Source: a virus (taxonomy: Duplodnaviria; Heunggongvirae; Uroviricota; Caudoviricetes). From it: a stretch of DNA of 21,234 nt. Under the pieces are notes generated by a model. The model was not told where the DNA came from, did not search any database, and saw nothing but the letters and a program-made list of their open reading frames with translations. The stretch is taken from IMG/VR virus record IMGVR_UViG_2698536401_000006. The stretch is one strand, 5' to 3'. The translations under genes were made by a program, and so were the position numbers. Positions 1,850-18,811 of the stretch are shown piece after piece. Position 1 is the stretch's first letter, and each line of letters opens with the position of its first letter.

Positions 1850-2120
1850 GATGTTACCGTAGTATGTGAGTATCCATCGAATAGACACCAAGCAAAAAAG
1901 CTCCCGAAGGAGCCTTCATTTTCACTTTTTTAAATCCAACGACAGACGGCTGGCATTTAAGTATTGTGAAATATTATCAAATGTAATCATCATTGATTTA
2001 CAAAAGATACATTTTGCCCCGAAAGGATTCATGTCAGAAACATCAAAAGATGATGTTCTATACTGGGAACCATGACAACACGGGCATCTAAAGTGAATAT
2101 GGTTTGTAATATTGTCTACC

Positions 2121-2333
2121 TCAAAGCGCCACTACATGAACAGCGGCAGGACCTTTAGGTCCGTTCTCAATACCAAATTCAACTTCCTGATTCTCAGTTA
2201 ATGTTTTGAAATCGTTGCTCTGAATTGCTGAGAAATGGACAAACACATCTTTGCTGCCATCTTTCGGCGTGATGAAACCAAAACCTTTTTCAGGGTTAAA
2301 CCATTTCACTAAACCAGTCATTTTGTTAGACAT
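2121..2333 (-). CDS. cspI: Cold shock protein CspI (CspA family)
   Basis: 70 aa with the signature [37 protein letters not shown] (RNP1/RNP2 motifs KGFGFI and VFVHF). Confidence 0.9.
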
Positions 2334-2695
2334 AATTATTACCTTTTGAAGAAATTAGCCCTTGGGCAGAATGGTCCGAAAAAAAATATCAGAGAGAAAA
2401 ACCAACAAGGAAATCTCAAGAGGTACAAATAATAAAATTATAACAATGACTGCTTCAGATAAATTTGTAACAAACCAGAACACCATTAACGCATGATTAA
2501 CCACCCATAGCAAGGATTACTTTTGTAAAGAAAAACACAGCAATGAAAGAATAGCTTTATTTATTAATAAAACGTGTCATTCTGATTAAGACCTTTTATC
2601 TTACCCTTAAGATTTCAGGAATTTTGGCTCATGGAAGAGTCCTTTTTATTTAAATTTTACATTCCGCGATGTAAATGTTCCGATTTAATATTACC

Positions 2696-4726: not shown

Positions 4727-5004
4727 ATTGTGGTGCTTTTTGTGGGAGTCATCCACTTACGCACTTTGTTTTGCCATGCCAGCAGTTAGCTTCTGCTGTA
4801 AAACTATTCATGCAGCAAACCTGCACTTCACCACAATGGTTAGCATACTTTTCCTGATTAAGATTTTGCCAAATATGCTAGCCATTGTTTCATGTATTGG
4901 ACCTCCTTACTTTTTATTAAAGAGATCCAATATTCACTACTCTGTCCGTATCTCTACTCAGGCATCAGCCTTCTTCGTTATCGTATACAGACGAGCGATG
5001 AATT

Positions 5005-5220
5005 TTAATCAGTAATGATGACATTTGCTGCTGCAGGACCTTTAGCACCACTCTCTATAGAGAAGGTAACCTTTTGACCTTCAAATAAGGTTCGATAATT
5101 ATCATTCTGAATCGCAGAAAAATGCACAAACACATCTTTACTACCATCAACAGGAGAAATAAAGCCGAAACCTTTATCAGCGTTAAACCATTTTACTAAA
5201 CCAGTCATTTTATTTGACAT
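5005..5220 (-). CDS. cspB: Cold shock protein CspB
   Basis: 71 aa: [67 protein letters not shown]..., CspA-family signature. Confidence 0.9.
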
Positions 5221-5520
5221 TCTACATTCCTTAACTTGAGCCTTTCGGCATAAATGGTTTGCATAACAGAAACGACTTCGTACTTAATTGGAGAGACTCA
5301 AAGAAGGAATAAGTGAATAACACCTGAAATGAGAACTGCTTTAGTAAACTACTTCGTATATCGTCTGTTCTTCAAACCGACGCAATCATTAACGCATAGT
5401 TGAACATATGAAGCAATGTTTATTTTAGACATCCAGCCATCTTCAACCCCATCAAAAAACTATAGCTTTCTTCAGGAACGTGTGTATAGTGCGCCAAGTT
5501 ATCAGTATTAAGGAATTTTT

Positions 5521-6920: not shown

Positions 6921-8009
6921 TTACGCCAGTACGCCAATTGTCAGCGCGCGATCGATAAAACGAAATATCAGCTCCAGTTGGGAGCCATACTTATCTTCAA
7001 ATGCCACTGTATCCGTATGCAGCTCGTTGTGATGCTTTCTGCACAAAGGCAACACAAAGAGATCATGTGCTTTTGTTCCCATTCCGCCCTGCCCGTGACC
7101 AATCAGATGATGCGGATCGTCGGCTGGCATACCGCAGCAAGCACACGGCTGTGTCTTAACCCAACGTGTGTATTTCTCCTTAACCCAGCGGCGACGTTTA
7201 GGCAGCTTCATGAAAGATTCCGGAGACTCTGGATCAACGGTGATGCTTACCACCGTCTTTTCCTGTGGTGATTTTTGTTGCTGGTGGGCGTAAGGCAACG
7301 GTGCAAGATTTTTTGTGCGTTGTTTCAATATGCTGGTGGCGGTCTGCTCTCCCGGTACGATGTCGCTTTCGCGGTACACCGAGCAGATTTTTTCCGCTGG
7401 TAATCCCAGCGAACGACGCGATACAGCCTCAGGTAGTGCATCCACCACCTGATTGCAGACCGCCCACCAGGATAATTCAGCCAAAGATAATTCCCGCTCC
7501 TGCGTACCGCTTATTGCGTGACGGATGACGTCAATCACCCATGCTGTCAGATTTTGTTGAGCAAGCAGCTCCAGTGATTCCGATGTCTGGTCACGCAGTT
7601 GGTTGTCGCAGTGCCAGCACAACACCATTGCGCCGGTACCATAACGGTGAATGACTGTTTCAGTGTGATGGTAATCGCCATTAGGCCACTGGCAGGATGT
7701 AACATGACGTAATAGCCAGTCGGACAATGCGCCAACGCCGCCAGCAGCACGAATCACCCGTTCGTTACTAAAAAACGGCAGCAATGTTTTGTCTTCCGCC
7801 AGCGGCTGGCGAACGGCAGGAACGACTCCGGATGGCAGATTACGCATGCTTTTTGGTTCCGGTTCCACCAGCACTCGAGGATTATGAAATATCTGTATGG
7901 ATTCACGGCCCGGCTTAAGGACCACCAGCCCAAGCTCAGGCACCAGAACAGGTCTAAGTAATACCCGCACGTTACCTCCAGATCCGTTGCTGGAAAGTGC
8001 GGGACGCAC
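6921..8009 (-). CDS. ydfU: YdfU-like protein (DUF968 family) with a C-terminal HNH-like Cys/His motif
   Basis: 362 aa ORF directly upstream of Q. C-terminal CACCGMPADDPHHLIGHG...CRKHHNELH. Start uncertain: the ORF overlaps the upstream rem-like ORF by 38 nt, and an internal Met (MRNLPSG) exists. Confidence 0.65.
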   Translation of the reverse strand: MRPALSSNGSGGNVRVLLRPVLVPELGLVVLKPGRESIQIFHNPRVLVEPEPKSMRNLPSGVVPAVRQPLAEDKTLLPFFSNERVIRAAGGVGALSDWLLRHVTSCQWPNGDYHHTETVIHRYGTGAMVLCWHCDNQLRDQTSESLELLAQQNLTAWVIDVIRHAISGTQERELSLAELSWWAVCNQVVDALPEAVSRRSLGLPAEKICSVYRESDIVPGEQTATSILKQRTKNLAPLPYAHQQQKSPQEKTVVSITVDPESPESFMKLPKRRRWVKEKYTRWVKTQPCACCGMPADDPHHLIGHGQGGMGTKAHDLFVLPLCRKHHNELHTDTVAFEDKYGSQLELIFRFIDRALTIGVLA

Positions 8010-8250
8010 GTGGTGGGCGTTCGGAATAAGGCAGCCTGACAGAGATTATCCAGTGCCGATAGTCGAGACTGAGAGCTTTCTTAACCTCGAACCCGCGCCT
8101 GCGGTAAGAATGAATCAGCCATTCGGCCTGTTCTGCAGTGCATGGAGGGTGCTGGAACCATTCAGACTTGAATGCGTGAGAATACCGCCCGTGCGTGCAG
8201 GCAAGAACGGGCGAATTATCAGAATTGTAATATTTTGCGTTGCGTGCCAT
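7972..8250 (-). CDS. rem: Rem-like small protein (assigned by position)
   Basis: 92 aa ORF between the ydfU-like gene and hokD, where rem lies in K-12 Qin. Named from position only. Confidence 0.5.
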   Translation of the reverse strand: MARNAKYYNSDNSPVLACTHGRYSHAFKSEWFQHPPCTAEQAEWLIHSYRRRGFEVKKALSLDYRHWIISVRLPYSERPPRASRTFQQRIWR

Positions 8251-8316
8251 CGGTTTTCTCCGGTGGCACGGTGTTACTCAGCGGGAGTTCAGCCCCGCGC
8301 AAGATTGTAGATGAGT

Positions 8317-8568
8317 TTATTCTCCTGAAAAAGCAGAAAAGCCAGCTTTTATTCCGATCTCTTTCAATGCCTGTAATGAAGTGACAAACTCACCTTCGCG
8401 CAAGATAAATCCGTCCGTGACCCGAGCATCCACAAAATTAATTAACGCAGCCCCATTCTTTCGCAAACACATAATGCGGTAATGACTAACAAGATTTCCA
8501 TTTTCAACGCACACAGCATAGAGGCCATCTTCACAAAAAATTTTACGCAGTTCTTCGATGTTCATCAT
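8317..8568 (-). CDS. Hypothetical 83 aa protein, no recognisable family
   Basis: ORF with SD GGAAGGA 6 nt upstream of ATGATG, downstream of the relBE-hokD terminator. I do not recognise it. Confidence 0.5.
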   Translation of the reverse strand: MMNIEELRKIFCEDGLYAVCVENGNLVSHYRIMCLRKNGAALINFVDARVTDGFILREGEFVTSLQALKEIGIKAGFSAFSGE

Positions 8569-8685
8569 CAGAATCCTTCCGGATAATTAGCTCTCCCCTT
8601 TAAGGGACCATCCCTCTTATCCCTGCGCGCTACTTAAGTATTTTTGATTCTATTCCGGCACCGTCCAGAACTTCAAACGCGTTGA

Positions 8686-8714
8686 AAATAAAAACAAAAA
8701 CCCGCCGAAGCGGG
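8686..8714 (-). terminator. Rho-independent terminator of the relBE-hokD operon
   Basis: The minus strand reads CCCGCTTCGGCGGG followed by TTTTTGTTTTTATTT, about 70 nt downstream of the hokD stop. Confidence 0.75.
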
Positions 8715-8784
8715 TTAAGTGCGGGTGCGTTGAGGATGCCTGCCACATCAGAGGTGGCGAGGGATTTCTCCCCCGCCGGGTCTC

Positions 8785-8940
8785 TTACTCCTCAGGTTCG
8801 TAAGCTGTGAAGACAGCGACCTCCGTCTGGCCGGTTCGGATTCGTACCTCGCAGAGGTCTTTCCTCGTTACCAGTGCCGTCACTATGACGGTTAAACAGA
8901 TGACGATCAGGGCGATTAACATCGCCTTTTGCTGCTTCAT
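8785..8940 (-). CDS. hokD: Hok-family membrane toxin HokD (RelF)
   Basis: Manual translation gives MKQQKAMLIALIVICLTVIVTALVTRKDLCEVRIRTGQTEVAVFTAYEPEE (51 aa), matching remembered HokD. SD AGGAGAAG upstream. Absent from the ORF track because of its size. Confidence 0.85.
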   Translation of the reverse strand: MKQQKAMLIALIVICLTVIVTALVTRKDLCEVRIRTGQTEVAVFTAYEPEE

Positions 8941-9011
8941 AGCCTGCTTCTCCTGTCAACGCAAAGCAGAAGTGTCACCTTCGGTGCGAAACAGAGATGT
9001 CATGCTTTGGT

Positions 9012-9299
9012 TCAGAGAATGCGTTTGACCGCCTCGCTATATACTTCCGAGCGTTCTCTTTTCCCAACAGAAATCACGAAAACGACAACTTTCTCGTCTA
9101 TAACCTGGTATACAAGGCGATAGCCTGAAGACCGGAGCTTAATCTTGTAACAATCAGGCATACCACGGAGCTTGTTTGCTTCAATCCGGGGTGACTCAAG
9201 TACTTCAACCAGCTTCTTTTTCAACTGTTCACGTACCGTCGAGCCCAGCTTTCGCCATTCCTTTAGTGCCCGCTCGTCAAAATCCAGAAAATACGCCAT
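9012..9299 (-). CDS. relE: RelE mRNA interferase toxin
   Basis: 95 aa: MAYFLDFDERALKEWRKLGSTVREQLKKKLVEVLESPRIEANKLRGMPDCYKIKLRSSGYRLVYQVIDEKVVVFVISVGKRERSEVY..., matching remembered RelE. Start overlaps the relB stop (TGATG). Confidence 0.9.
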   Translation of the reverse strand: MAYFLDFDERALKEWRKLGSTVREQLKKKLVEVLESPRIEANKLRGMPDCYKIKLRSSGYRLVYQVIDEKVVVFVISVGKRERSEVYSEAVKRIL

Positions 9300-9538
9300 C
9301 AGAGTTCATCCAGCGTCACACGTACTGGCTTAGGATTACGAAGCCGTTCTTTCACTATCTCCACAAGTTCAGCATCTTCATCACTCAGGAGTGTCTGTTT
9401 GAACGGCAAGCGTTCATTGTCAGCGATATACTCGAGCATGAGACGAAGCGCTTCAGAAGGAGTTACACCCATTTTTTCAAGCGCGGCGTAAGAACGCGCT
9501 TTAAGTTCATCGTCAATACGCAGGTTAATGCTACCCAT
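9299..9538 (-). CDS. relB: RelB antitoxin
   Basis: 79 aa: MGSINLRIDDELKARSYAALEKMGVTPSEALRLMLEYIADNERLPFKQTLLSDEDAELVEIVKERLRNPKPVRVTLDEL. SD GAGG upstream. Confidence 0.9.
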   Translation of the reverse strand: MGSINLRIDDELKARSYAALEKMGVTPSEALRLMLEYIADNERLPFKQTLLSDEDAELVEIVKERLRNPKPVRVTLDEL

Positions 9539-9544
9539 GTCTTA

Positions 9545-9590
9545 CACCTCTTGTAATTACAAATGTCATTACAAGTATCGCACTACAACA
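9545..9590 (-). promoter_or_regulatory. relBE promoter/operator (relO) with TTGTAAT/ATTACAA hexad repeats
   Basis: TTGTAATTACAAATGTCATTACAAG sits immediately upstream of the relB start, with palindromic TTGTAATTACAA. Confidence 0.7.
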
Positions 9591-9868
9591 TGCTTAGGGC
9601 AAGTCACGAAGGAAGTCAGAAAGTAGTCGTAAGAACGGTGATCACTGTCCGCTTTGTGCCAGGAGCAGCCATTGCTAAGTCCATCCTGTATTGTGCAGGT
9701 CAGCTCGTTTTTAAAGAGTCCGGCCATCATCTTACTGGTACAGACACCATATACTTTGTGACGGTCAGGCTACATATGCACAACTCAACTTATTCATCTA
9801 TTTTTTGCTTTAGCATGTCAGTGTTGCTTTCTCGTCGGCGGGTGAGCGGTGACCTGACCTGTCGATAA
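9563..9868 (+). CDS. Doubtful ORF, YdfV-like by position and length
   Basis: 101 aa ORF in the relB-flxA gap with no RBS and no recognisable features. It overlaps the relO promoter region. Listed only because K-12 annotates a 101 aa ydfV here. Confidence 0.2.
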   Translation: MSLQVSHYNMLRASHEGSQKVVVRTVITVRFVPGAAIAKSILYCAGQLVFKESGHHLTGTDTIYFVTVRLHMHNSTYSSIFCFSMSVLLSRRRVSGDLTCR

Positions 9869-10020
9869 AGGAACGTAACACGTTTTATGCAACACCCGCA
9901 TGCGGCAGAAAATTATTGCCGAACGTTTACCCCTGTCAACAAGCTTTACTTTCTGAGGCGCGCCAGCCCGCGAGGAAAACAATCTGAACATCAAACAATT
10001 AATGACACAAGAAATACGAT

Positions 10021-10047
10021 TAAAGATTTTTTTGTGCATGCCGATAG
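10021..10047 (+). promoter_or_regulatory. Sigma-28 (FliA) class 3 flagellar promoter upstream of flxA
   Basis: TAAAGATT-N11-GCCGATAG compared with the consensus TAAAGTTT-N11-GCCGATAA; about 24 nt upstream of the flxA start. Confidence 0.75.
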
Positions 10048-10070
10048 TGCTTTTTTAAAAGGAGAAATCT

Positions 10071-10403
10071 ATGTCTGTCACAATTCAGGGAAATACCTCA
10101 ACCGTTATTTCAAACAACTCCGCCCCGGAAGGAACATCAGAAATAGCCAAAATCACAAGACAAATTCAGGTGCTGACTGAAAAGCTTGGGAAAATCTCAT
10201 CGGAAGAGGGGATGACGACACAGCAGAAAAAAGAAATGGCTGCATTGGTACAGAAGCAAATTGAAAGCCTCTGGGCTCAACTGGAGCAGTTGTTAAGGCA
10301 GCAGGCAGAGAAAAAGAATGAAGACGCGACAGTTCAGCCTGATAAAAAAGAAGAGAAAAAAGACGATACAAATACCGCTGGCACCATTGATATTTACGTC
10401 TAA
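10071..10403 (+). CDS. flxA: FlxA (FliA-regulated protein)
   Basis: 110 aa: MSVTIQGNTSTVISNNSAPEGTSEIAKITRQIQVLTEKLGKISSEEGMTTQQKKEMAALVQKQIESLWAQL... RBS AAGGAGA. Confidence 0.85.
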   Translation: MSVTIQGNTSTVISNNSAPEGTSEIAKITRQIQVLTEKLGKISSEEGMTTQQKKEMAALVQKQIESLWAQLEQLLRQQAEKKNEDATVQPDKKEEKKDDTNTAGTIDIYV

Positions 10404-10417
10404 GTGACAGCCGTATT

Positions 10418-10441
10418 GTGGCCCTCATCGGGCCACTTTTC
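10418..10441 (+). terminator. Rho-independent terminator of flxA
   Basis: Hairpin GTGGCCC-tcatc-GGGCCAC followed by TTTTCG. Confidence 0.6.
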
Positions 10442-10839
10442 GCCATCAGCCTTTTCTTTAAAGACATATTATCTTTGTATCATTTCTGATAGTTAACATT
10501 ACAAGATATAAGTAATGGACGCACTCCCAATTAGTCTATTTAAATCGCCACGAGTTTAACTGACAACCCATGATCAATTATGAATTGCAACTATTTCTGT
10601 AGTCACTTTTGTGGGGACAGTCCACAAAACTGCCAACTTCCGCTTCTTGCTCTTAGCGGACATTAGCATAGGCTATTTACCATAACGCCTCATTACGCGC
10701 ACCGCCCAGACTGACTCAGCGCGTTTCTGGCATATCCCCGGTAAAACAAGTAACAAACCACCCGAAAATGAACACCAGAAACGCGACTTAAGAATCTACC
10801 CTATGAATGGATATGCACTCAACCGAATCGATCTTGGTT

Positions 10840-12153
10840 TCAATCTTTTTTATCGGGATCAGGCTTCTTTTTAGGTAACTTCGGGGGCTTAACTTGCTGA
10901 TGACTTTGCGTTCGGCGCGTAAGCCAGGGATGGTCAGCTTTAGGTTTAACATAGTATTTTGAGCGTAAATCAATACGGGCATTATCCACTCGTTCATGGA
11001 CACTCTTTTCATCATCCAGTGGTATAGGCTCCGGGCCATCAACATACTTTTCCCAGCCCAGCGCTTTCCCGTCATACAGAACGTTAATTTCACCGTCAAA
11101 GTTCTCGCATACAGTAACAACCGAATGCCTAAGTCGATATCCCCGGCCCTCACTGCGTACCTGAAACGCACTGCTTTTGTACTGGAAAGTGAGATTTTTA
11201 GACAGAACGCGCTTCGCCTGTAGGCTGAAGATATAACCCAGTTCCTCTTCAGAATGGTGCACATCAAGATGAGCATTATCAGTAGTACGAGGCGACGTAG
11301 CGAACCGGTTGTTATAGGCTTCAATAAAGGTCGGCAACCATGCATTTGCTGTTTCAATATCACTGATATTCTGAAGCCGCATTTCTTTGACCAGCCTGTC
11401 CTGTAGTGTCTGATTGGCGCGCTCTACCCGCCCTTTTGCCTGCGGGCTGTTGGCATGGATTGGCTCGATGCCCAGTGTCTTTATCGCACGAGTGAACTGG
11501 GTCAGCTCACCTTCCCGCTCTGGGTTATTTACCCTGAATATACTGTGTCTATCAGAGTAGAGAGCGAGCGGTACGCCATGATCATTAAGGTAACCCCGGA
11601 GGGTTTCCATGTAAGCCCGGGTTGTTTCAGCAGGCACAAAACGCAACGCCATCAACGCACTGGTGGCATCATCAATGAAAACGATCAGTGTACATCTGGG
11701 GCCTCGATTTTCAAACCAGTCATGAGGTGAGCCATCAATCTGGATCAGTTCACCGTAAGATGGTCGTCGCATGCGGCGTTGATATATACGGGCAATTTTA
11801 CGACGGCGTTCACGCCATAACCCCTCTTCTATCATCCACTTTCTGAGAGTTTCAACGGATAAAGATAAACCGTGTATCTCGCGCAATTTTTCGCACGCAA
11901 ACGTAGGTCCAAAATCAGCGTAACGGCCTTTGAGGAGTGAAATTACTGTTGCTCTGAATTCAGTAGAAAAGGAATTATTAGGACGCTTTCCACGTCGGTG
12001 GGAAACCAGACCAGAAGGCCCTTCATTTCTATACCGTTGCACCAGACGTTTAACCTGCCGAATAGAAATGCCAATGCGTGCCGCAGCTTGTTCCTGAATA
12101 ATCTGAAGTCGGTGGAGTTCCTTATGACTCATCGTAACAGTCTCTTTGATCAT
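10840..12153 (-). CDS. DDE transposase with N-terminal HTH and rve (integrase-core) domain, IS481-like in architecture
   Basis: 437 aa with an N-terminal HTH region (ISIRQVKRLVQRY) and D/D/E-type core segments (IQIDGSPHDWF, LIVFIDDATS, LYSDRHSIF, ERANQTLQD). IS family is not established and IS ends were not identified. Confidence 0.75.
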   Translation of the reverse strand: MIKETVTMSHKELHRLQIIQEQAAARIGISIRQVKRLVQRYRNEGPSGLVSHRRGKRPNNSFSTEFRATVISLLKGRYADFGPTFACEKLREIHGLSLSVETLRKWMIEEGLWRERRRKIARIYQRRMRRPSYGELIQIDGSPHDWFENRGPRCTLIVFIDDATSALMALRFVPAETTRAYMETLRGYLNDHGVPLALYSDRHSIFRVNNPEREGELTQFTRAIKTLGIEPIHANSPQAKGRVERANQTLQDRLVKEMRLQNISDIETANAWLPTFIEAYNNRFATSPRTTDNAHLDVHHSEEELGYIFSLQAKRVLSKNLTFQYKSSAFQVRSEGRGYRLRHSVVTVCENFDGEINVLYDGKALGWEKYVDGPEPIPLDDEKSVHERVDNARIDLRSKYYVKPKADHPWLTRRTQSHQQVKPPKLPKKKPDPDKKD

Positions 12154-12370
12154 GAAAAATCCCCCAGAGAATTGTCTGGGGACATTTTAGAATGGTTCAA
12201 AGGGGACATTACAGCTTGGTGTTAACAATAGCCTGCTTCTCCGTGCCTTTCGGCACGTAAGAGGCTAACCTACATGTGTCTAGCATGAAATTGGCCTCAG
12301 ATTAATGTTAAGCGTCTTGCAGGACGCGTAATGTTAACTGGGGCTTTTCTCTATCTGCCGTTGGTGTCCA

Positions 12371-12402
12371 TGCCCGAGGCAGATAGCCTCAAGCACCCGC
12401 CG
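12371..12402 (+). repeat. Left copy of a 32 bp imperfect direct repeat flanking the low-GC cassette
   Basis: TGCCCGAGGCAGATAGCCTCAAGCACCCGCCG; 27 of 32 nt match the copy at 14390-14421, with an identical 14-nt core CCTCAAGCACCCGC. Confidence 0.6.
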
Positions 12403-12636
12403 TGATTCTACAAAAACATTACCCACCTTTCCAGCAATTCACAACAACTCCATGCAAATAGTAAGTAGAATAATAAGTTATTAGTATTAGCAATTTACTT
12501 AGTTTCTAATTTGTGCCAATGATTTTCATTTTTGCATGAAAAATACCTTAACATTTTATATTTACTTACTATTTGTAAGCCCCATCAGTTCTTTCTGATG
12601 GCGGCTGGTATTTCAGTTCCAGATATAGTATATGCT

Positions 12637-13665
12637 TTACGCCTTAATAGGGTTAATCACATTTCCGCTATCCGTACCATAGTATTTTTTTGTAGTCATG
12701 CCTTGTTTATAATAATCATTTAACAGTTTGAGAAAGTTTCTTCCTTGCCTCTCATCTTCTATGACTAATTTACCATGCTCATTGGTCTTAAACTCTTCGT
12801 TCTGAAACATTTTTAGCACATCATTCATAGCTTGAACATCATTCTTTTCCAGAACCGTATGGTTACCTTTCTCAGCGATATGAGTGAGAATTTTTCTCAG
12901 TGATGGCTTATGAAGAATAGCTTGTTCAATAACATCTAAACCTTCAATAAGATCAAGTTCTTTAATTGTATTTAATGTTTTTTGTGCAGCTTCTGTAAAC
13001 TCAACCTCCAAGCCTACAATAGCCTCAAAACTTTTCTTATGAAATACATAAAATTGATCTTTTATATAAATACAATCGATTTTGTCATCAAAATTGACTG
13101 CGCTGCCATCAAATGATCTTAACTCTTTATCTGTTTTATCAAACAAAGCGAATACGCGCTGAGTCATATTTTGTGGTTCATTTGTTGTGACTTTCCCCCT
13201 GCTGATTTTTCGGAAAGAATAAGTGACGTCAGCCCCCTTTTGGACTTTAATACAATAGGCCCACAAATCATTCTGAACCTCAGCCAGAGAGGTAAGTACA
13301 ACTGGTTTATCATTCTTTATATCGTTATTAATAACTTTTGAAAACGATATCGCGTTATTCATAGCATAGGCATAAATCTTATTATCAATATCATCATCAA
13401 TAACAGTATACTTTTTCATCACAATATCATCTTTCGAAGCATGAGAAATAATCTGGTTTGATAAAGTATACTTAAAAAATTTAGCAATATCTGGAGCGAT
13501 TGGAGCTTTAATGATTTTAAAATCGAATTTATCAACAACTCTTGCGGTTCTACTCATACCCGCTTTAAGATGTCTAGTAATGAAATACAACGATATTTTC
13601 GCCGCATCATCATCCTTAAGTTGCTCAGCATACTCTAATAATTCTTCAAGCTTTAACATTTTCAT
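12637..13665 (-). CDS. Hypothetical 342 aa soluble protein, second gene of the low-GC cassette (candidate defence effector/sensor)
   Basis: AT-rich ORF with Lys/Asn/Ile-biased codon usage unlike the surrounding prophage. Translationally coupled (ATGA overlap) to the upstream membrane protein gene. No motif I can name. Confidence 0.75.
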   Translation of the reverse strand: MKMLKLEELLEYAEQLKDDDAAKISLYFITRHLKAGMSRTARVVDKFDFKIIKAPIAPDIAKFFKYTLSNQIISHASKDDIVMKKYTVIDDDIDNKIYAYAMNNAISFSKVINNDIKNDKPVVLTSLAEVQNDLWAYCIKVQKGADVTYSFRKISRGKVTTNEPQNMTQRVFALFDKTDKELRSFDGSAVNFDDKIDCIYIKDQFYVFHKKSFEAIVGLEVEFTEAAQKTLNTIKELDLIEGLDVIEQAILHKPSLRKILTHIAEKGNHTVLEKNDVQAMNDVLKMFQNEEFKTNEHGKLVIEDERQGRNFLKLLNDYYKQGMTTKKYYGTDSGNVINPIKA

Positions 13666-14276
13666 TCCTTATGGGATTCAGCATAAAAAAGTTTTGGGCC
13701 CACGTCCTCAACATCAAGAAGATCATCTTCCTCCAAATACTTTGATTTAGTCAAAACCATACCAGTGCGTTTTTTGTCGCTTTCTAAATCCAAATATGTA
13801 ACTTGATATAAAGTATAATTAATACTTATTGTAGGATTTATAAGTATCATGCTTGAATTAATATATATTAAAGCCGTTACCGTTAACAATATTGCTATAG
13901 GTATAACATTAGTTAAAGTGGATAGATCCTGAAATACAAACGGAATTATATATGTAAAAAGATAGCTTATTGATTCATTGTTTTTATTTTCAATATCTAT
14001 AACTCTTACAGTTCTACCACTAGTGGCGCATCGACGTTTTATATTTTTTAAAAAAATTGTTAATCCTACAATACCAAATAATGATAATACACCAATGACA
14101 CTGACCGCGCCAAAGTATTTAAAGAAAATAGTTAATGATTCAACACTTATACCTTTCCAATTTAAATAGCTTCTATAAGTATACAATTGCACAAAACACA
14201 TGATAAAGAATAGGGGAAGGTATGACACTATAAATAGCGAAACTCTAGCACCTAAATGTAGTTTATTTACTCTCAT
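13662..14276 (-). CDS. 4-TM membrane protein, first gene of the low-GC cassette
   Basis: 204 aa with four hydrophobic segments (about 12-31, 48-74, 103-115, 123-146) and an acidic C-terminal tail. AT-rich. Its stop overlaps the start of the downstream gene. Confidence 0.7.
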   Translation of the reverse strand: MRVNKLHLGARVSLFIVSYLPLFFIMCFVQLYTYRSYLNWKGISVESLTIFFKYFGAVSVIGVLSLFGIVGLTIFLKNIKRRCATSGRTVRVIDIENKNNESISYLFTYIIPFVFQDLSTLTNVIPIAILLTVTALIYINSSMILINPTISINYTLYQVTYLDLESDKKRTGMVLTKSKYLEEDDLLDVEDVGPKLFYAESHKE

Positions 14277-14389
14277 AACTACCCCACAGCCTACACGTCT
14301 AGTATTTTATGTTATTTCGAATAATTATGCATCAGATTACCATCCTACAATTGTGCATAAAACGAGCATTTTGCTGATTTTTCTGCGGA

Positions 14390-14421
14390 TGCCTGAGACA
14401 GACAACCTCAAGCACCCGCAG
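14390..14421 (+). repeat. Right copy of the 32 bp imperfect direct repeat flanking the low-GC cassette
   Basis: TGCCTGAGACAGACAACCTCAAGCACCCGCAG; pairs with 12371-12402. Confidence 0.6.
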
Positions 14422-14484
14422 CAATTTTACTTAACTCCCGCTACCTCGCCAATATGAAATCAATAAGAAAGGTGCTCCATAAAA

Positions 14485-15171
14485 TCACTCCTTCTCTTCT
14501 TTATCGTAGTGGAGTTGACCAATTTTGATAAGAGGGCGTCCCTGAGATTTGCGGTGTAGATTGGTATCGCGCAGAGAATACACACAGCCACAATATTCCT
14601 GCTGATAGAATTTTTCGCGCTTGCTGATTTCAATCATGCGGGACGAGCCGCCCTGCTTGCGCCAGTTATAATCCCAGTACACCATGCCCGGATAATGCGC
14701 GACGGCTCGCCGCCCACAGTCGTTAACCTGCTGCATATTTTTCCAGCGTGAAATGCCCAGTGAACTGCTGATCACACTGAAACCATTTTCAGCAGCGTAC
14801 AGCGCTGTCCGCTCAAAACGCATGTCAAAACACATGGTACAACGGATCCCCCTCTCGGGCTCCCATTCCATTCCTTTGGCACGTTCAAACCAGTTGTCTG
14901 TGTCGTAATCAGCATCAATAAATGGCACGCCGTGTTGTTCAGCAAAGCGAATATTCTCATCCTTACGAATTAAATACTCTTTCTGAGGATGAATGTTCGG
15001 GTTGTAGAAAAAGATGGTATAGTCGATTCCCGAGGCCTGAAGCGCCTCCATCACTTCACCGGAACATGGAGCACAGCAAGAGTGCAGTAGTAGTTTGTTT
15101 GCCCCGTTTGGGAGCTCCAATTTAGGCCGTTTGAAATCAGCAATAGTCATAAATATTTTTATTGGGGTCAT
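14485..15171 (-). CDS. QueH-like protein (DUF208, epoxyqueuosine reductase family)
   Basis: 228 aa containing [14 protein letters not shown] near the N-terminus, the Cys motif I associate with QueH/DUF208, plus further conserved Cys (CTMC, CGC). Start could be the internal Met at 15150. Confidence 0.65.
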
Positions 15172-15347
15172 GAAAATAGCACAGAGTGTAGCATCAGGGC
15201 TATCGGGAATAGATGTCTAAATCTGGTAATATCTGCTTTTGACGCAAAGCAGACAACCACGCTAGCTCAATCCTGTGCCGTGAAAATGTCAATTCACATC
15301 TGAACTAATGCTCTTTAATCTAGTTACGTCTATAAATAACGAAAATT

Positions 15348-15746
15348 TCACTGATAAAATGCCAGTATGCGCTGCATAACTTCGCTCTTCCGGCACTCAC
15401 AGCAAATTATGTTTTGGTGCCTGTCATAACGACGTATTTCTCCGTCAGGTAATGACCAGATAAGGTCCGGATCAACCACAGATGTTTTCTTCACCTTTGC
15501 CCTCGAGAGTTTTTTGCGGGCGTTTTGCCAGTCCTTACGAGCCTGTTCAGACGGGAATAACCCGTAGCCAGAGTTATATACATCACCACTGGCAACCAGC
15601 TCTCTGGCGAGAACGCTCATCAGATATCTTGTCGCACCTGTCTTGGCTTCCAGTTGCCGTAACGTCTCGCGCCCACTCCGGCGTACTAGCTCAACAACCT
15701 GCCCCTTGATTTTTTCCCGCTCTTCTTGTGTAAAAACTTTTGCCAC
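15348..15746 (-). CDS. Hypothetical 132 aa early-region protein
   Basis: ORF immediately downstream of the O-like gene; no recognisable motifs (no Walker A). Function unknown. Confidence 0.5.
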   Translation of the reverse strand: MAKVFTQEEREKIKGQVVELVRRSGRETLRQLEAKTGATRYLMSVLARELVASGDVYNSGYGLFPSEQARKDWQNARKKLSRAKVKKTSVVDPDLIWSLPDGEIRRYDRHQNIICCECRKSEVMQRILAFYQ

Positions 15747-18753: not shown

Positions 18754-18811
18754 TTTCTGGTGACGTTTGGCGGTATCAGTTTTACTCCGTGACTGCTCTG
18801 CCGCCGTTTTT
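18754..18811 (+). ncRNA. dicF: DicF small regulatory RNA (ftsZ-targeting sRNA) with intrinsic terminator
   Basis: TTTCTGGTGACGTTTGGCGGTATCAGTTTTACTCCGTGACTGCTCTGCCGCCGTTTTT matches remembered DicF, including the terminal hairpin and U-run. Located between ydfB/C and dicB. Confidence 0.8.

Follow-up and report, generated by a model that had tools for sequence, protein, structure and literature searches.

The window analysed here comprises 21,234 nucleotides of the IMG/VR virus record IMGVR_UViG_2698536401_000006 and is a Qin/Rac-type lambdoid prophage. Four Rfam matches above the gathering threshold mark it as Qin-type: the DicF small RNA (18755-18806, plus strand), the sok antitoxin RNA, which is paired with hokD (12227-12398, minus strand), and two cspA-type thermoregulator leaders (4989-5381 and 2094-2479, minus strand). 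Along the strand that encodes the queH gene studied here, the order is Cro, YdaT/cII-like, O-like replication, DUF977, queH, KwaA/KwaB, an insertion sequence (IS), hokD/sok, DUF968 and antiterminator Q. The first-pass annotation had placed the gene in a nin-like location between the replication genes and a defence-like cassette, and this placement holds, with the Cro, YdaT/cII-like, O-like and DUF977 genes upstream and KwaA/KwaB downstream. The DUF977 gene itself (15348..15746, minus strand) matches PF06163 at 8e-29 and phrog_142, labelled 'Ren-like exclusion protein'. A copy of queH that is 100% identical to the one in the window resides in a prophage of strain W2-5, integrated beside rspB. 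In the annotation of the corresponding region of that prophage, from the integrase through the head genes, Que, Dpd and Tgt genes are all missing, and the related phage HannyBb, whose complete genome measures 45 kb, likewise has no annotated DpdA/Tgt, FolE or QueC/D/E gene. The earlier remark that no partner Que or Dpd genes are visible in the window thus extends to the annotation of these two elements.

The open reading frame first reported at 14485-15171 is real and covers the full length of PF02677, with two corrections concerning its strand and its start. The gene lies on the minus strand, and the plus-strand translation of the same interval is riddled with stop codons. Read from the first ATG (15171), the frame encodes 228 amino acids, and the cysteine motif singled out in the first-pass annotation corresponds to residues 27-37 of this version. 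Alignment of the upstream regions of 10 diverse alleles showed that the first ATG is variable, being replaced by ATT in a Rac-type allele, whereas the second ATG (15150) and its surrounding context are invariant. Homology to chromosomal queH orthologues also starts at about the second ATG, and the PGAP call for the gene is 221 amino acids long. Because of these four observations, the likely queH coding sequence is 14485-15150 on the minus strand, that is, 221 amino acids plus stop, whose identity is supported by the Pfam, PDB and fold matches described below. A Shine-Dalgarno sequence is absent at both candidate starts (15171 and 15150). Residue numbers given below refer to the 228-amino acid version.

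The protein gave a strong, full-length match to the Pfam profile PF02677 (QueH, formerly DUF208), with E=1.9e-65 and 220.6 bits against a cut-off of 23.5 bits, spanning profile positions 1-174 of 175. By the measure of these sequence scores, the match is not due to chance. A PDB sequence search retrieved Thermotoga maritima QueH at E=5e-22. PGAP names the product 'epoxyqueuosine reductase QueH'; a search of the protein against NCBIfam profiles returned no family at E<=0.01, so that the PGAP name presumably derives from a non-HMM rule. Given the Pfam, PDB and fold results, this null result carries no weight against membership in the QueH family. To place individual residues, we used a family alignment of 65 members, made up of the phage protein, T. 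maritima QueH and 63 full-coverage representatives taken from 1.84 billion cluster representatives. Six cysteines are invariant in 65/65 members, and all of them are present in the phage protein (C32, C33, C111, C114, C194 and C196), as are the other residues that are invariant throughout the alignment (N59, E65, R69, E106, R110, K144, Q191 and G195). The phage QueH satisfies the conserved metal-ligand cysteine pattern CCxPC/D ... CxxC ... CGC, of which the N-terminal metal-binding motif CCAPC (C32-C33-A-P-C36) is encoded at 15064..15078 on the minus strand. Neither of the two outcomes that the first-pass annotation had named as refuting it, a missing DUF208 match or missing Fe-S-ligating cysteines on alignment, was obtained. 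The phage enzyme differs from T. maritima QueH at position 36, the equivalent of D13: it carries the Cys found in the majority of the family (61/65), whereas Asp occupies this position in 4/65 members, T. maritima included. For T. maritima QueH the PDB also contains the mutants C9S and D13N, and our assignment of ligands to metal is based on conservation and on the titles of these mutant entries.

The predicted structure agreed with these results. An AlphaFold model of the phage QueH (pLDDT 76.6, pTM 0.78) had as its five best PDB matches T. maritima QueH structures only, at target-normalised TM-scores of 0.82-0.84 and an rmsd of 2.8 A. These T. maritima matches include 7lc5/7lc7, the queuosine complex and the C9S and D13N mutants. 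The next PDB matches were TtuA-type alpha-hydrolases, with TM-scores of at most 0.39. Compared with T. maritima QueH (7lc5, 7lc7, 9deu), the phage protein thus has the same fold and retains every invariant residue. Family membership, ligands and fold together confirm that the gene is a full-length, intact-ligand member of the QueH family.

The same family is already represented in phage protein collections under a truncated form. PHROGs phrog_3217, listed with 'unknown function', is QueH starting at the internal Met41 (14485-15051, residues 41-228), and several metagenomic gene calls likewise begin at residue 41. Met41 is preceded by the Shine-Dalgarno-like sequence GGTGA, and a start at this codon removes the CCAPC motif. 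The residue-41 start amounts to a systematic annotation error by which QueH escapes surveys of phages, and the lack of the metal-binding motif in the PHROGs profile is probably the reason why phage QueH has been overlooked.

Gaps of 197 nt upstream (counted to the conserved start) and 208 nt downstream separate queH from its neighbours. As a host-derived gene inside a phage genome with intergenic gaps on both sides, queH is a candidate prophage moron, or auxiliary gene. Upstream of the gene, the invariant TGATGCTACACT block (15185..15196, minus strand) contains a candidate extended -10 element (TG-n-TACACT), and the TGATGCTACAC sequence (15196-15186) is invariant in 10 aligned alleles. Homology between alleles starts right at the TGATGCTACAC block in GPEC657 and about 30 nt further upstream in allele L047 and in the Shigella copy. 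The TGATGCTACAC block is accordingly described here as a candidate extended -10 promoter, which would be compatible with autonomous, moron-like transcription; queH may be expressed from this element of its own. A generic scan for sigma-70 promoters and terminators gave counts equal to those of shuffled sequence, called nothing in the queH upstream gap and yielded no terminator. Rfam searches, run at the gathering threshold over the whole window and at E<=1 over 14150-15450, found no riboswitch or other RNA element near queH. A hairpin in the upstream gap (about 15252-15227) was rejected as a conserved element, given its z of -1.5 and two non-compensating stem changes in O104:H4-type alleles. 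Downstream of the queH stop lies a 16-bp near-perfect hairpin (14383..14421, minus strand; fold of 14350-14484, -40.7 kcal/mol, z = -2.5). It has no U-run on the queH strand and a partial one on the opposite strand, and it is kept in HannyBb, a phage that does not carry Kiwa.

We then compared the surroundings of queH across prophages. Among 80 IMG/VR queH loci, the repressor, Cro, O and Q modules are often unrelated, and a DUF977 homologue is found upstream of queH in 79 of them, usually starting 579-580 bp before the queH start. The DUF977-queH order is also kept in genomes sampled across the identity range, namely O104:H4 FWSEC0009, GPEC657 (a Rac-type prophage) and GF4, and a lambdoid prophage was the location of every queH copy examined. 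The downstream side behaves differently. In 63 loci of E. coli lambdoid prophages, the interval from queH to the DUF968/HNH gene is a variable defence and moron hotspot, which corresponds to 10840-14276 in the window and, in other loci, to 7856-9871 (L073), 8547-10563 (L036), 9246-10980 (L058), 9600-9899 (L025) and 9223-9615 (L052). This slot is minimal in 28/63 loci, where it measures about 800 bp and holds no ORF of 90 amino acids or more, a small hokD being annotated here in O104:H4. An NgoMIV-type type II restriction enzyme with a C5 methyltransferase fills it in 14 loci, an unassigned 130-amino acid lipoprotein in about 7, Kiwa in 6, RmrT/RmrA in 3 and a ParE toxin in 1, the remainder being IS elements and other one-off variants.

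In the window, the slot next to queH is occupied by a Kiwa system on the minus strand (12637..14276), with kwaA at 13662-14276 and kwaB at 12637-13665, recognised by PADLOC at 336.6 bits for KwaA and 527.7 bits for KwaB. Since Kiwa occupies so few of the slots, and other cargo or none is found elsewhere, it is a neighbour without a functional tie to queH. No PADLOC model matches the QueH protein itself, and queH stays constant while the cargo varies; QueH as part of Kiwa or of another defence system was rejected on these grounds. In short, queH is a conserved flank of a defence hotspot and not a Kiwa component. The Kiwa cassette differs in composition from its surroundings, with a GC content of 0.318 against about 0.49 in the phage backbone. 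Where the cassette encodes Asn, Asp, His or Tyr, NAU is chosen over NAC in 86% of cases, compared with 55-59% elsewhere, and these are the codons read by tRNAs that carry queuosine at position 34 (Q34); AT-richness alone could account for this excess. Downstream of Kiwa, an IS transposase of 437 amino acids (HTH plus rve-type integrase core, 10840-12153) is missing from the otherwise identical W2-5 prophage and is found in the IMG/VR loci L010, L017 and L020.

The position of queH raises the question of whether its fold has been recruited to another purpose, either 7-deazaguanine modification of phage DNA or an anti-phage or counter-defence function within the hotspot. Such a recruitment would fit a gene that adjoins Kiwa and a hotspot with restriction-modification, RmrTA and ParE cargo, and it would have a parallel in the co-option of QueC-family proteins for defence in QatABCD (PMC13639016). 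However, the prophage protein is 80-91% identical to the chromosomal, housekeeping QueH of Enterobacterales (Enterobacter, Kluyvera, Erwinia, Providencia, Proteus, Serratia and others) and keeps all invariant residues of the family. The constancy of queH beside changing defence cargo, the PADLOC result and the solitary, housekeeping nature of the chromosomal orthologues speak against recruitment as well, and neither the prophage region nor the complete HannyBb genome has an annotated DpdA/Tgt or preQ0-synthesis gene, which excludes a 7-deazaguanine DNA pathway as far as annotation allows. We consider recruitment extremely improbable. Of the two functions that the first-pass annotation had offered, modification of host tRNA queuosine is therefore the one that is supported, whereas participation in a 7-deazaguanine pathway is not.

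The distribution of queH was determined in bacterial and viral sequence collections. The gene is present in 995/5,426 complete E. coli genomes (18%). It occupies 1,017 places there, of which only 3 are not chromosomal, and it was also found in E. albertii and Shigella flexneri. The isolated Escherichia phage HannyBb carries queH at 94.6% nucleotide identity, annotated as 'hypothetical protein'. When 2.9 million IMG/VR contigs were scanned with a pattern for the whole family, 215 QueH-encoding stretches were recovered. Only 4 of the 80 best-ranked IMG/VR loci fell outside the E. coli lineage, and about 211/215 stretches appear to be part of it. The presence of QueH in further phage lineages was considered and rejected, at least two of the four non-E. 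coli matches being host flank (outside the integrase or beside SDR/AraC genes). Among 50,697 phage records (INPHARED), HannyBb was the only convincing isolated phage with queH, and most other QueH matches in that collection were dismissed as unannotated faecal fragments or oversized 'phage' records. Two records named 'Acinetobacter phage MD-2021a' (H23 and H24; CAKLQH020000001.1 and CAKLQF020000001.1; 328-379 kb) carry an Enterobacterales-type QueH at 78.5% identity, and their size and content suggest that they are not clean phage genomes.

Regarding the origin of the gene, the nearest non-phage relatives are the QueH proteins of Enterobacter, Kluyvera and Scandinavium (86-91% amino acid identity), followed by those of Erwinia, Pantoea, Serratia, Rahnella, Providencia, Proteus and Photorhabdus (78-86%). 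Chromosomal queH occurs in housekeeping contexts, for instance beside tmcA in Providencia and beside purL in Erwinia, and its contexts inside Enterobacteriaceae are non-syntenic and accessory-looking. In Enterobacter hormaechei B56, the closest non-Escherichia copy (91%; locus L090, 4283-4885) directly follows a 200-amino acid fragment of a phage integrase and is itself followed by LysR and acetolactate decarboxylase genes, a context which suggests that queH is mobile within Enterobacteriaceae on further elements. Between the phage gene and its chromosomal relatives, homology ends at the ends of the coding sequence and synonymous sites are saturated. These two features indicate an old capture whose donor cannot be named, and they led us to reject a recent capture from a named donor. 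An ancestral lambdoid phage would thus have taken queH long ago from a chromosomal Enterobacterales queH, and the gene would now belong, as conserved accessory content, to the early-right region, in which replication genes are followed by DUF977, queH, the defence hotspot and Q.

Whether a captured gene of this kind does anything for its carrier is a fair question, as queH could be a neutral hitch-hiker in a successful prophage module, of no benefit to phage or host. Its catalytic redundancy with a universal queG (see below) and its absence from 82% of E. coli genomes would agree with neutrality, as would the fact that we know of no phenotype that distinguishes epoxyqueuosine (oQ) from queuosine (Q) in E. 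coli. Sequence evolution argues otherwise. The 228-amino acid frame is intact in 82/82 phage-context copies, which amount to 8 protein variants only, and dN/dS is 0.09 between the window and HannyBb alleles, which differ by 5.4% in DNA. The gene has also been kept across prophages whose surrounding modules were exchanged, and the saturation of synonymous sites against all chromosomal relatives makes the capture an old one. The gene is under purifying selection within the phage lineage; neutral hitch-hiking is contradicted by these selection data, and we judge it to be very unlikely.

The first-pass annotation had also stated that E. coli chromosomes normally use QueG, and this was borne out in full. 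Using K-12 queG as query (>=95% identity, >=80% coverage), we detected queG in 5,426/5,426 complete E. coli genomes. The queH gene, in contrast, occurs in the 995 genomes mentioned above and in prophages only, so every queH-positive strain has both reductases; the prophage enzyme coexists with QueG in every host genome, which sets it apart from known QueH. The two enzymes are predicted to share both their reaction and their four tRNA substrates, and they belong to unrelated families with different folds and different cofactors, since QueG (YjeS) depends on cobalamin and a [4Fe-4S] cluster. De novo synthesis of cobalamin is impossible for E. coli. The cobalamin dependence of QueG is documented (PMC4646009), and the same article cites Frey et al. 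1988 for the demonstration that the final queuosine step of E. coli is cobalamin-dependent. QueH, for its part, has been described as iron-dependent.

With QueG already present in every E. coli, the prophage adds no new reaction. According to the mechanism that we propose, QueH, as an iron-sulfur, cobalamin-independent enzyme, would turn oQ into Q at the wobble base (position 34) of the tRNAs for Asp, Asn, His and Tyr. The contribution of the prophage would then be an additional isozyme whose cofactor requirement differs, and it is this difference that would allow a lysogen or an infected cell to finish Q34 under conditions that limit QueG, such as a short supply of B12, making Q34 completion independent of cobalamin. 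A precedent exists in S. aureus, where QueG and QueH are interpreted as redundant isozymes that use distinct cofactors (PMC13443448), and some streptococci also encode both (PMC12632869). In our literature search, we found no experiment on the prophage QueH protein. Considering the intact ligands, the fold and the conservation of the gene, we think it likely that prophage queH encodes a catalytically competent, cobalamin-independent QueH that provides a second oQ-to-Q route beside QueG. We infer its activity on E. coli tRNA, its B12 independence in the host, the timing of its expression and its selective benefit.

A different view of the same enzyme is that it serves the phage rather than the lysogen. 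QueH would be made on infection or induction and would shift host tRNA from oQ to Q, either reprogramming translation or blunting or triggering a tRNA-directed host response. That queH belongs to the early-right operon and shares its strand with cro, O and DUF977 is what would be expected of such a gene, and its vicinity to the defence hotspot, with the strong NAU preference of the neighbouring AT-rich Kiwa genes at Q-decoded codons, could be read in the same way. A 2026 preprint on Shewanella phage infection, in which queG expression and the Q/oQ ratio rise and the oQ-to-Q conversion is called a key regulatory step, provides a rationale for a phage-controlled reductase (bioRxiv 10.64898/2026.03.05.709803). 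The codon content of the phage does not follow this expectation: the NAU fraction is 0.57 in phage late genes and 0.55-0.57 in early genes, against 0.59 in the host sample. Phage backbone genes are therefore no richer in NAU than the host, and a codon-usage rationale for the phage backbone was rejected. Kiwa, moreover, lies beside queH at only 6/63 loci, and to our knowledge no decoding difference between oQ and Q has been described, which also weighs against this view. Taken as a whole, the use of QueH as an active instrument of the phage, in any of these variants, seems unlikely to us. Somewhat less doubtful, while still speculative, is the broader proposal that temperate phages manipulate tRNA modification in their hosts, and that the lambdoid lineage carries its own oQ-to-Q reductase so that the prophage or infecting phage sets Q34 status independently of host B12. 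If that were true, the fitness of phage or lysogen would change measurably, and so would translation, for instance that of horizontally acquired genes rich in AT and NAU, like those of the neighbouring defence cassettes. In about 18% of E. coli, pathogens such as O104:H4 among them, queuosine status would then depend on the prophage and vary from strain to strain.

The second oQ-to-Q route that we favour can be set against three known systems. Known QueH enzymes are encoded at chromosomal housekeeping loci, whereas this one sits in a temperate phage. S. aureus, S. pyogenes and S. suis resemble queH-positive E. coli in that both non-orthologous reductases share a cell; in those organisms, however, both genes are chromosomal, whereas in E. 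coli the second enzyme arrives by lysogeny and the trait therefore varies between strains. Phage 7-deazaguanine clusters, in which DpdA occurs with FolE/QueD/QueE/QueC (Hutinet et al. 2019), have in common with our case that genes of the queuosine/7-deazaguanine pathway are phage-borne. In those clusters preQ0/G+-type bases are put into DNA via DpdA, while the prophage queH stands alone and encodes a Q-specific enzyme predicted to act at the tRNA level. The survey that described them reported no QueA, QueG or QueH homologues in the viruses analysed (PMC6884629), and our own literature search found no description of a phage-borne QueH. The enzyme family is thus known and the gene is already named by PGAP, and its phage niche is undescribed in the literature that we found.

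The enzymology itself is not new. If the enzyme is active, the prophage gene would clearly exemplify an enzyme for a Q-specific tRNA step that is encoded by a phage, of a kind absent from the dedicated viral 7-deazaguanine survey. Queuosine biology has E. coli as its reference organism, and this species has been assumed to rely on the cobalamin-requiring QueG for the final step. With an active QueH, about one strain in five would have acquired a B12-independent bypass through lysogeny, and strains would differ in their oQ/Q status when B12 is limiting.
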